Origin: Solirubrobacteraceae bacterium
GTDB taxonomy: Bacteria; Actinomycetota; Thermoleophilia; Solirubrobacterales; Solirubrobacteraceae
Length of the DNA stretch: 64,000 nucleotides
Assembly: GCA_035650455.1 (NCBI GenBank)
Contig: DASRHQ010000070.1
Span: forward strand, 60-64,059
Direction: 5' to 3'
Shown: positions 21,559 to 56,737 of the stretch, in pieces
Layout of the letters: every line of letters starts with the position of its first letter
Position numbering within the stretch: position 1 is the stretch's first letter
The notes under the pieces: model-generated
The model's input: the letters and a program-made list of their open reading frames with translations, nothing else
Database searches by the model: none
Told to the model about the DNA's origin: nothing
Translations under genes and position numbers: made by a program

Positions 21559-22032
21559 ATGGCACGTCCACGCAGACGCAAGGCCCAGCCCGGTGACGTG
21601 GCTACCAACCGTCAGGCCTCCTGGCGCTACCACCTGCTCGAGCGCTATGAGGCCGGGCTGGTCCTGACCGGGACCGAGGTTAAGGCCCTGCGCGCATCGG
21701 GCGCCCAGCTAAAAGACTCCTACGCGGTGATCCGCGACGGCGAGGCGTGGCTGATCGGCTGCTACATCGCACCGTACGGACCCGCCAACCGCGCCAATCA
21801 CGATCCGGAACGTGAGCGCAAGTTGTTGCTGCACCGATCGGAGATAGAGCGGCTGATCGGCAAGACGCAGGAAAGGGGACTGACCCTGATCCCGACGCGG
21901 GTCTACTTCTCGGGTGCACACGCCAAGGTCGAGCTCGCCCTGGCCCGCGGCAAGGACCGCTACGACAAGCGCGAATCGATCCGCAGGCGCGAGGTCCAGC
22001 GCGAGATCGAGCGCGAGCTCCACGCGCATTAG
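21559..22032 (+). CDS. smpB: SsrA-binding protein SmpB
   Basis: ATNRQA, EAGLVLTGTEVKALR, RKLLLHRSEI, ELALARGK, DKRESI. Confidence 0.98.
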   Translation: MARPRRRKAQPGDVATNRQASWRYHLLERYEAGLVLTGTEVKALRASGAQLKDSYAVIRDGEAWLIGCYIAPYGPANRANHDPERERKLLLHRSEIERLIGKTQERGLTLIPTRVYFSGAHAKVELALARGKDRYDKRESIRRREVQREIERELHAH

Positions 22033-22085
22033 GTAGAGGGGGTCCTCGTTGGCCGTTGAGCGGCGGCTACACCCCCGGTTTGAAT

Positions 22086-22155
22086 GGGACCGGCACATGT
22101 GCCGGTCCCCCGGCCGCGCATGCGCGGCCGGGGCGCGGGCGCATGCGCCCGCGCC
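22086..22155. repeat. Array of three tandem perfect palindromes (core GCRCATGYGC, 23-bp period)
   Basis: GGGACCGGCACATGTGCCGGTCCC (22086-109), CCGGCCGCGCATGCGCGGCCGG (22110-131), GGCGCGGGCGCATGCGCCCGCGCC (22132-155). Confidence 0.9.
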
Positions 22156-22171
22156 TGCCCAGATCGTTTCT

Positions 22172-22265
22172 GACCAAAGCCGTCGCGCGGAATCGGACTT
22201 TGATGGCTTTCGGTCGCTCGGCGGTTTATTCCGACCAAACCGCAAACTTCCGGGTGAGTCTGGTC
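22172..22265. repeat. Cluster of GACCAAA-containing imperfect hairpins
   Basis: GACCAAAGCCGTC (22172-184)/GATGGCTTTCGGTC (22202-215); GCGGTTT/AAACCGC (22221-243); second GACCAAA copy. Confidence 0.55.
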
Positions 22266-22318
22266 ATTTTTTCCCGCCTCTTCGACTGACGGCGAGCCGA
22301 CCCCTCAGAGCCGGCGAT

Positions 22319-23355: not shown

Positions 23356-23723
23356 GGGGACGACAGGCTTCGACGTGGTTGGCTCGTGGGGGTGGTTGCG
23401 AGCCGAGGTTCCGGGCGGCCTCGTAAAACACCCGGAAGAAAATAAGTGCGGACTCGCACAGTTTCGATCTCGGTTACGCGGCTGCTTAGTCGGTAACTGA
23501 CGTTCGTCTCGGCCATTGCTCGCCTGCGGCGGTGAGCCGGGATCAATTAGCAGGCTCGCCCGGAGTGGATTTGCTCCCTCCGCCCCGGGGACATCTAGGG
23601 AGCTAGCCCCCGACAACCCGGCCGGCGAGGCGAGTCGGGGGCGAGAGTTAGAGCGCCGGCTACGCTCGTAGACGCCACATCCACACGACCGCGGACCCGG
23701 GTTCGATTCCCGGCGTCTCCACC
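23356..23723 (+). ncRNA. ssrA: tmRNA (one-piece)
   Basis: 5' GGGGACGACAGGCTTCGAC; 3' T-arm CCGGGTTCGATTCCCGG; acceptor CGTCTCC-A-CC; tag after AAATAAGT: GCG..TAG 23448-23489 = ADSHSFDLGYAAA; smpB nearby. Confidence 0.97.
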
Positions 23724-23730
23724 TTTACAG

Positions 23731-55332: not shown

Positions 55333-55430
55333 CGCTCACAGTCCGACGGGTAGCTTCGGTCGCGAGCGAGGGCCCGATGGAGCCCTCTGTATAGTTGACC
55401 CGTCAAACAATCCATGGAAAGGGGAACGCG

Positions 55431-56003
55431 ATGAAGCTTGGACGTCTCATACTGCGGGCCGGCATCGGGGGAGTCTTCGTGGGTCACGGTGCCCAAAAGC
55501 TGTTCGGCTGGTTCGGAGGCCACGGCCTTCAGGCCACGTCGCAGGCCTTCGAGAGCATGGGAATGCGCCCCGGTCGGGTCCATGCGACCGCTGCCGCGGT
55601 CGCCGAGTTCGGGAGTGGAGCGCTGGAACTGCTTGGTTTGGCGACGCCGCTGGCGGCCTCGGGCATTACCGGCGTGATGCTGACCGCGATCCATCGCGTG
55701 CACAAAAAGAATGGGTTCTTCGTTACCGACGGCGGATACGAGTTCAACCTCGTGTTGATCGGCGCGGCGCTAGCGCTTGCCGAGGTCGGGCCTGGCCAGC
55801 CGTCGCTCGACTCGGCGCTGGGGATGGACATGCACGGCCCGGGGTGGGCGCTCGCGGCGCTCGCTGCCGGCGCTGCCGGAGCGGCCGGCGCTCACCTGTA
55901 CGCAGAGAGCCAGGCGCAGCCCCCCGCGCCGACGCCCCCTGCGGCGGCCGAACAGACCGTGACCGAGCAGGCGCCCGCCGAGGCCGCGCAGCCGAGCGCA
56001 TAG
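55431..56003 (+). CDS. DoxX-family membrane protein
   Basis: [35 protein letters not shown]; GGGGA RBS. Confidence 0.92.
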
Positions 56004-56016
56004 ATCACCTGTGGAC

Positions 56017-56088
56017 GGCCGCCGCACATGTGCGGCGGCCCGGCCGCGCACATGTGCCCGGCCGCCGGCCGGCGCATGCGCCGGCCGG
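56017..56088. repeat. Second array of three tandem 24-bp palindromes (core GCRCATGYGC)
   Basis: GGCCGCCGCACATGTGCGGCGGCC (56017-40), CGGCCGCGCACATGTGCCCGGCCG (56041-64, 1 mismatch), CCGGCCGGCGCATGCGCCGGCCGG (56065-88). Confidence 0.9.
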
Positions 56089-56089
56089 G

Positions 56090-56737
56090 TTAGATTGGGG
56101 GCATGAGCGGGCTTTCGATCCCAGATGCCATGCCCCGAACGGCCGCGAGTCGCTCGAGCATCACAGCCGTGTCGGCGATCTTGACACCGGTGAGGTGACT
56201 TTCTCGCTGCTCGAAGTCGCGGACCACGTCGCCGATCGCGGCGGTGTACGCACGTCCGTCGCGGAGAGCCAGCGCGGTCAGCGCCCGGGCGGTGCGCTCG
56301 AAGGCGTCCCCACCCCGGGCCATCTCCTGGCTCCACCTGCGCGCGTCGGGGTCGTCGCCCGCTACCAGCGCGGAGAGCGCGCGCGCATACGAGGCAGTCG
56401 GCGAGCCGGCGACCGCCTCCTCGTCGTCGAGAGCATCGCGGGCAAACGCGGCCGCGTCAGTCGCGTCGCCGGCGAGAATCGAGGACTTGAGCATGCCGAC
56501 GAGGCGCCCATAGCTGCGCGGCGGCGATGTCTCCCAGGAGGCGCGGTACAGATCTGCGGCCGAGTGGAACGCGGCGAGCGCGCCGTCGCGGTCGCCCGCC
56601 AAGAGGGCCCCCTGAGCTTCGGCATCGCGCTCGATCGCGGCCCTCATCAGGTCGCGGTGAGGGGGTGCGGGCACGGACGTCAGAGTACGCGCCGCGACTG
56701 TCGACATCCAGACCGCCGAAGGAGTACGGTGAGCCAC
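56090..56737 (-). CDS. Hypothetical all-helical protein divergent from coxS
   Basis: Ala-rich helical [22 protein letters not shown]; start may be ATG ~56648. Confidence 0.65.

Follow-up and report, generated by a model that had tools for sequence, protein, structure and literature searches.

A dispersed, lineage-restricted family of CATG-centred palindrome arrays with proposed REP/BIME-like behaviour in uncultured Solirubrobacterales

The DNA analyzed here is a 64,000-nt stretch (the window, by which we mean this stretch at its full length) of contig DASRHQ010000070.1, assembly GCA_035650455.1, from an uncultured Solirubrobacteraceae bacterium, and the subject of this work is an array of three palindromes located at 56017-56088, between the ends of two convergent genes. 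Upstream of the array, on the plus strand, is a gene encoding a 202 aa protein of the DoxX family (55395-56003; PF07681, E=4e-19), which has homologues in relatives and ends with a TAG stop at 56001-56003; a 13-nt spacer (56004-56016, no strand assigned; ATCACCTGTGGAC) separates this stop from the array. On the other side, an open reading frame (ORF) of 215 aa on the minus strand (56090-56737), with no Pfam domain and a GC content by codon position of 0.73/0.58/0.81, terminates with a TAA codon (TTA on the plus strand) at 56090-56092. A preliminary description of the window had the array abutting this opposing stop, which is right as to the adjacency, the exact gap being 1 nt.

The array is made up of three abutting 24-bp palindromes, none assigned to a strand and all centred on CATG, in the order GGCCGCCGCACATGTGCGGCGGCC, CGGCCGCGCACATGTGCCCGGCCG and CCGGCCGGCGCATGCGCCGGCCGG, with centres at 56028.5, 56052.5 and 56076.5. 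Unit 1 (56017-56040; GGCCGCC-GCA-CATG-TGC-GGCGGCC), an outer unit of the "GGCC-type", and unit 3 (56065-56088; CCGGCCG-GCG-CATG-CGC-CGGCCGG) are perfect palindromes, reported by a repeat finder as 100% self-complementary with no spacer, and unit 2 (56041-56064; CGGCCGC-GCA-CATG-TGC-CCGGCCG) carries a single C/C mismatch at 56047/56058. The three units, their centres, the one mismatch in the middle unit and the 13 bp from the DoxX stop had all been given in the preliminary description, and both the sequence and the repeat finder bear them out. Either strand of the array is predicted to fold into three 10-bp stems with CAUG tetraloops. Read support, a check proposed in the same description, was found for this array: a 7.3-kb contig of run X1 covers 55850-56250 with zero differences, and contigs from an independent study (X3) are identical up to 56070 and again from 56086. 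Because the X1 contig spans the region and the X3 contigs agree without difference, the array is not an assembly artefact; contigs of independent runs end inside it, and assemblers break there. Searches of Rfam at the locus returned nothing beyond chance-level matches (E of at least 0.07), and no terminator-like site was called across 55700-56400.

The same architecture recurs throughout the genome (3.76 Mb, 66.9% GC, 114 contigs), which like all the genomes compared is a metagenome-assembled genome (MAG), these being 56-100% complete. CATG-centred 24-bp palindromes are far above chance: 146 of the 11,276 CATG sites centre perfect 24-bp palindromes and 47 centre palindromes with one mismatch, whereas for eleven other palindromic cores of 4 nt, none of which has more than 62,939 sites, the number of perfect ones is only 0-3. 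The distribution of arm lengths shows a sharp peak at 12. These 193 palindromes fall into 78 clusters, among them 64 arrays comprising 53 exact triplets, 4 quadruplets and 7 pairs, in which the modules, palindromes of 22-24 bp, abut without linker at a centre-to-centre spacing of 24 (67 cases) or 23 (46 cases). The logo of the unit consists of seven positions that are nearly all G or C, followed by G (92%), C/A, G/A and an invariant CATG, giving a conserved 10-bp core G-M-R-CATG-Y-K-C with outer positions S; the usual polarity of an array is a GGCC-type, then a CCGG-type, then a YGGG-type unit. The preliminary description knew of two copies, the second of which, at 22086, is also present (22086-22155, with units of 24, 22 and 24 bp), and had argued from them for a function or a shared generating mechanism; the genome holds 64 arrays, which supports that argument.

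The arms of the units form a master-plus-cloud population. A total of 187 units carry 103 different arms, 94 of which are one step away from another arm, and the commonest arms, CCGGCCGGAA, GGCCGGCGCA and CGGGCGCGCG, occur 17, 13 and 8 times, compared to 3.1 copies for the commonest arm of a composition-matched null. Identical units never co-occur in one array, and the units within an array differ from each other more than random pairs do (5.69 vs 4.88 differences). Among 23 arrays of this genome, a covariation set chosen for palindromy, there is 1 G-U among 690 cells; the tests on orthologues described below are free of that bias. Decayed units, with centres that read CGTG or are deleted, were observed flanking intact arrays at C24:55500-55535, C47:22590-22616 and C3:79454-79480 (for example, GGGCGGGCGCACGCGCCCGCCC here corresponds to GCGCATGCGC, still present in the sister species G264), a pattern expected of palindrome-centre instability. 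Another pair of sites, C25:50-120 and C29:36871-36941, has a left flank in common (one mismatch over 40 nt) and carries different arrays, in which the set of units differs and the shared units show paired changes; the pair stems either from a recent duplication or from a mixture of strains in the MAG.

The evolution of the array was followed at the DoxX locus itself. The DoxX gene and the opposing ORF are syntenic in four other species (G198, G302, G068 and G237), with genes about 71% identical, and a CATG-centred palindrome triplet with different stems lies at the same place in each of them; unit 1, for instance, begins with GGCCGGG in all four and is still a perfect palindrome. Because these loci were located through the flanking genes and not through palindromy, the comparison is unbiased in this respect; the orthologous locus of G080 (L024), taken at a wrong offset, was left out of it. 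In the five-species alignment of the array, 99.3% of the cells are paired, 17 of the 30 pairs have changed on both sides and 0 on one side, no G-U is present (0 in 148 cells), and 0 of 500 shuffles reach any of these measures; when the partners are slid by 1-3 columns, pairing falls to 32-47%. In the more distant G021, which also keeps the ORF beside DoxX, the same two genes abut and the array is absent. Given triplets at the orthologous locus in four species and none in G021, the DoxX array is old, dating to the ancestor of the clade that shows the expansions, and its structure has been kept while its sequence changed. The proposal in the preliminary description that symmetry and spacing are conserved rather than primary sequence is thereby upheld across five species, all of which keep three CATG units, and the further copies and the conservation in relatives on which it had made its argument depend are both present.

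A genome-wide comparison was made with G264, whose flanks are 90-97% identical to those of this genome. All 7 strict triplets of G264 are triplets at the orthologous site here. The 14 orthologous triplets compared comprise 504 pair positions. Of these, 46 differ on both sides yet are complementary in each genome, 2 differ on both sides and are left unpaired, and 9 differ on one side, with four of the 9 at the outermost position; arrays have diverged at 10.4% of sites and flanks at 9.7%. Single compensated pairs can be recognized, such as T..A vs C..G in unit 3 of C71:40052, or GCTGCCG..CGGCAGC vs GCCGCCG..CGGCGGC, and other differences consist of a whole unit swapped for one found elsewhere in the genome. 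Unit number varies as well: 13 of the 30 arrays with an informative counterpart are shorter in G264, with clean 24-nt presence/absence of one unit at k28, k18 and k25, one unit vs three at k58, k9 and k22, fused half-units in k34 and k58, and a centre deletion in k11. According to the outgroups, k28 and k34 are deletions in G264. Many arrays persist in G198 and G302 with stems that are changed yet symmetric, and array-free orthologous sites were found in G198 at k44 and in G302 at k42. At one further site in G302 (G302:C9:36808-37118; L194), orthologous to C63:80964, where a triplet is present here, three tandem copies of GACCTAAGC follow the stop codon and there is no hairpin array.

To describe the distribution of the family across taxa, a strict triple pattern and a covariance model were used. 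The strict pattern, with 29 matches in this genome, has at least one match in 61 of 301 species of the same large uncultured GTDB genus, with expansions in a few of them (51, 29, 20, 20, 12, 11 and 10 matches) and none for a reversed-pattern control. In an order-wide sample (301 genomes, 81 genera) it was found in the same GTDB family only, in three genera, and was absent from 210 genomes of five other families, and a scan of all prokaryotes with one genome per species returned almost only soil MAGs labelled "uncultured Solirubrobacterales/Solirubrobacteraceae". The preliminary description had suggested a covariance-model search of Thermoleophilia, to which Solirubrobacterales do belong; the model, built from 23 triplets, gave zero matches in 400 other Actinomycetota genomes (248 genera) and recovered just the two arrays at 22086 and 56017 within the window, over which Rfam at gathering score found only a tmRNA. 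Its range is limited to a single GTDB family of uncultured Solirubrobacterales, and it has undergone large expansions in this clade. As a description of it was not found in the literature searched, the family is apparently undescribed so far, and about 64 intergenic sites per genome could be labelled in the annotation of this very common uncultured soil group.

Matches to the triple pattern in Planctomycetaceae and Agromyces were inspected and have structures that differ from the family. One of these, in a Planctomycetaceae MAG (L133, 3940-4010 and 6565-6640), is an unrelated repeat, present twice and about 70 nt long, with nested CATG-containing inverted repeats (GGGTGGCATGCTCACGG..GTGAGCATGCTCATCC..GATGARCATGCCACCC); this is a different dispersed element, in another phylum. 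One contig of a MAG labelled Chloroflexota carries a look-alike triplet (CCAGGCGAACATGTTCGCCTGG, CCACCGTGGCGCATGCGCCACGGTG, CGGAACCGCGCATGCCGGTTCCG; L078, 2175-2245); either this contig comes from Solirubrobacterales and was mis-binned, or the family occurs in a second lineage.

The position of the arrays relative to genes was analyzed with a crude gene caller that uses GC by codon position (GC3-based), so that the following figures are heuristic outside the window. A stop codon is found on at least one side of 54 of the 64 arrays, at a median distance of 8 nt, and on both sides of 23. Between 21 and 23 of the 64 arrays lie between convergent genes, compared to 19% of all intergenic regions, and others lie between co-directional genes; the placement between convergent genes noted in the preliminary description is thus an enrichment and not a rule, as 7-9 arrays are located between divergent genes. 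Within the convergent pairs that bear an array, the intergenic DNA other than the array has a median of 20 nt, vs 54 nt in 573 array-free pairs (p=0.009). The gene ends that bear arrays are only about 2-4% of all. The flanks of the arrays are AT-richer, with a weak consensus tGTT|array|AACa, and the sequence that follows the last hairpin in RNA sense is A-rich. Complementarity between the flanks and direct repeats in them were no higher than in pairings shuffled across copies; therefore, the arrays have neither a closing stem nor a target-site duplication, and the weak tGTT/AACa consensus reflects composition and not pairing within a copy. No convincing case of in-frame insertion inside genes was found in this genome, orientation relative to the upstream gene showed no significant bias (12 vs 5), and no REPtron-like gene flanked by arrays appears in the array list of the genome.

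The second array of the window (22086-22155, no strand assigned) is located between smpB (21559-22032) and a gene for an M50 peptidase, and is absent from the orthologous site in G264. The spacer between the two genes (22033-22318) is 286 nt long here vs about 17 nt in this sister species, 95% identical, and the gap is only 25-46 nt in G198, G302 and G142. Apart from the 70-nt array, the spacer contains about 200 nt that occur nowhere else in the genome; within them, a stretch of 163 nt has internal "gaccaaa" repeats. As this adjoining stretch is unique, the possibility that the array is part of a larger repeat was ruled out. A full-length tmRNA gene (RF00023, 164 bits) lies at 23356-23724 on the plus strand, about 1.3 kb downstream of smpB, with the hairpin array and the M50 peptidase gene, on the opposite strand, between the two.

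Taking these data together, we lean, with modest confidence, towards the reading that 56017-56088 belongs to a family of hairpin modules that is dispersed, restricted to one lineage and similar to REP/BIME elements without a RAYT, in which symmetry is maintained by template switching and the arrays have a role at the 3' end of transcripts. The data show that the family spread within one clade of uncultured Solirubrobacterales and has been inherited vertically at fixed loci thereafter, with array sequences that turn over about as fast as the flanking genes, almost only by changes in both arms, and with whole modules gained, lost or replaced. Each module, as single-stranded RNA or DNA, would form a 10-bp stem with a CAUG/CATG tetraloop. 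Its symmetry would be kept mainly at the DNA level, probably by intra-hairpin template switching, or by gene conversion, during replication, through which a change in one arm is copied to the other, and exchange of modules between arrays would add to this maintenance; published work has documented that template switching both creates perfect hairpins and maintains them (PMC8794818, PMC7202029). With 1 G-U in 690 cells in one data set and none in 148 in the other, the symmetry is unlikely to result from selection on a single RNA strand alone, and where genes converge, transcription from both sides could tighten the constraint. Copying between arms cannot account for three features, namely the unchanging CATG, the constant length of modules and the mode of three units; these require selection, recognition by a factor, or continual re-seeding from master units. 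In the reading we favour, selection or recognition by some factor would keep the CATG centre and the length and number of modules. In transcripts, the array would be a very stable stack of hairpins directly after the stop codon, and such a stack would stop 3' exonucleases and act against read-through where genes are densely packed and often convergent, while having no U-tract. That the arrays sit so close after stop codons, in spacers that are otherwise minimal, suggests such exonuclease protection or a read-through barrier, so that the arrays probably act as a 3'-end hairpin stack, and clustered hairpins after stop codons have been proposed as terminators in GC-rich bacteria (PMC8355165).

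Several observations weigh against this interpretation, in addition to the heuristic nature of the gene calls. Of the arrays, 7-9 lie between divergent genes and several are located 3-25 nt before a start codon, and therefore not every copy can be a 3'-end device; moreover, only about 4% of convergent gene pairs have an array. A U-tract is absent, as at least 4 T in the next 8 nt were found at only 10 of 114 array ends, with a mean of 1.8 T vs 3.2 A, and mycobacterial RNA polymerase is reported to need a U-tract (Czyz et al. 2014, as cited in PMC8355165). The role at the RNA level is one that we infer, the runs that hold the sequence being all DNA metagenomes with no RNA run listed, and the absence of G-U pairs fits a constraint at the DNA level better than selection on a single RNA. 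Finally, neither a mobilising enzyme nor a target-site duplication nor a terminal inverted repeat that might account for new copies turned up.

The divergent copies, the small proportion of gene ends with an array and the lack of a U-tract keep alive the possibility that the arrays are selfish or a purely mutational by-product, GC-rich palindromic modules that arise and multiply by replication template switching and slippage and pile up where insertions do no harm, in the short AT-richer stretches after stop codons, with no function for the host. This would fit the patchy, lineage-specific expansions (0 to 51 copies within one genus), the polymorphism in unit number and the swapping of modules between loci that are 90-97% identical, the master-plus-cloud structure of the population, and the existence of decayed copies. 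We nevertheless regard it as rather unlikely, because arm-to-arm conversion alone leaves unexplained why CATG is invariant, why modules measure 22-24 bp and why three units are the mode (53 arrays, vs 7 with two units and 4 with four), and also because the DoxX-locus triplet persists across species and the convergent spacers that hold arrays are otherwise unusually short. A more speculative reading, which we consider unlikely, treats the modules as transposase-free replicators that copy, replace and correct one another by hairpin-templated strand switching within the stem and between arrays, with some host factor that reads the CATG/CAUG tip and fixes length and number. If this were true, it would constitute a new mode of repeat propagation and stem maintenance in bacteria, in which the stack was co-opted as a 3'-end signal independent of a U-tract.

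Strict Watson-Crick symmetry with essentially no G-U, perfect palindromes without spacers in which A/T-containing bases occur only at the centre, a conserved 10-bp core with free arms next to it, which is what recognition of a hairpin tip would be expected to produce, and the lack of a significant orientation bias would all agree with a DNA-level site, that is, a cruciform or single-stranded DNA hairpin whose CATG tip is read by a structure-specific protein, such as a nucleoid or topology factor (gyrase, which binds BIMEs, is an example), a recombinase, or a replication or repair protein. However, no candidate protein was found, a role confined to the chromosome would not predict the strong association with stop codons (median 8 nt), and transcription of both strands between convergent genes could by itself enforce Watson-Crick pairing on both, for which reasons we hold this explanation to be distinctly improbable. 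As for an ordinary bidirectional intrinsic terminator evolved in place at the DoxX gene pair, close to what the preliminary description had suggested, GC-rich hairpins do lie between two convergent stop codons, but no U-tract follows them on either strand, so that the array is not a terminator of the canonical kind. Furthermore, the same architecture and shared unit sequences are found at 64 loci and in other genomes, with unit GGCCGCCGCACATGTGCGGCGGCC of the DoxX array itself recurring at C63:30877 and in G023, and therefore we are dealing with a repeat family and not a local invention; the family data already contradict a terminator of local origin, which is very improbable. An origin by restriction and ligation, through inverted ligation at CATG ends, was rejected, because the arms have a fixed length of 12 bp and contain only G/C.

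If the interpretation we favour is correct, the arrays offer a clean natural case of symmetric evolution of both arms at approximately the pace of the genes beside them, and they lack the transposase by which REP systems are defined. They would also provide a tractable system in which to address how perfect hairpins are maintained (selection vs template switching), how repeats spread without an enzyme of their own, and how transcripts end without a U-tract in high-GC Actinobacteria.

Among known systems, the canonical intrinsic (Rho-independent) terminator shares with the arrays the GC-rich hairpin after a stop codon and differs in its U-tract. The "I-shaped" or tandem hairpin-cluster terminators proposed for GC-rich Actinobacteria, which lack a U-tract (PMC8355165), come closer, as several stable hairpins right after the stop, a high-GC actinobacterium and the absence of a U-tract are common to both; however, those are heterogeneous local structures, whereas the arrays form a sequence family that is dispersed, has an invariant loop and is built of fixed 24-bp modules, and their termination activity is putative. 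Quasipalindrome correction by template switching (PMC7202029, PMC8794818) gives one-step symmetric changes and perfect stems without G-U intermediates, as seen here, but it is a mutational mechanism and not an element, and leaves the CATG centre and the dispersal to new loci unexplained. Miniature inverted-repeat transposable elements, or MITEs, such as Correia elements or IS630-derived MITEs, are likewise small, non-coding and multi-copy, with presence/absence polymorphism between relatives, and the corresponding sites without an array were found in G021 (DoxX), G264 (smpB), G198 (k44) and G302 (k42); on the other hand, the arrays have no terminal inverted repeats that span them (the outer units differ) and no target-site duplication, and no related autonomous insertion sequence was identified.

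The closest resemblance is to REP/BIME/REPIN elements of Proteobacteria, mobilised by RAYT/TnpA-REP (PMC3733652, PMC3116915, PMC8266576). Like these, the arrays consist of short palindromes, rich in GC and extragenic, that number in the tens to hundreds, form clusters, are located after gene ends and between convergent genes, persist vertically and are structured as a master with variants, and roles in mRNA 3'-end stabilisation and termination have been proposed for REP/BIME. Unlike them, they lack a GTAG/CGTC tag, the outer positions of the unit logo being S, and the RAYT/Y1 transposase (PF01797) was not found in this genome or in 12 other array-rich genomes (MAGs 65-94% complete), in a search that gave matches in 6 of 14 reference genomes used as control. 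The units abut at 23-24 nt without linker and, being perfect palindromes, have no defined orientation; conservation is concentrated in the tip of the hairpin (CATG with its three closing pairs), the stems being almost free, and the modal array holds three different units instead of an inverted pair of REPs. Because the tag, the RAYT and the inverted-pair architecture all fail, we class the family not as a member of REP/BIME/REPIN but as one that would work like these elements, its closest known counterparts.
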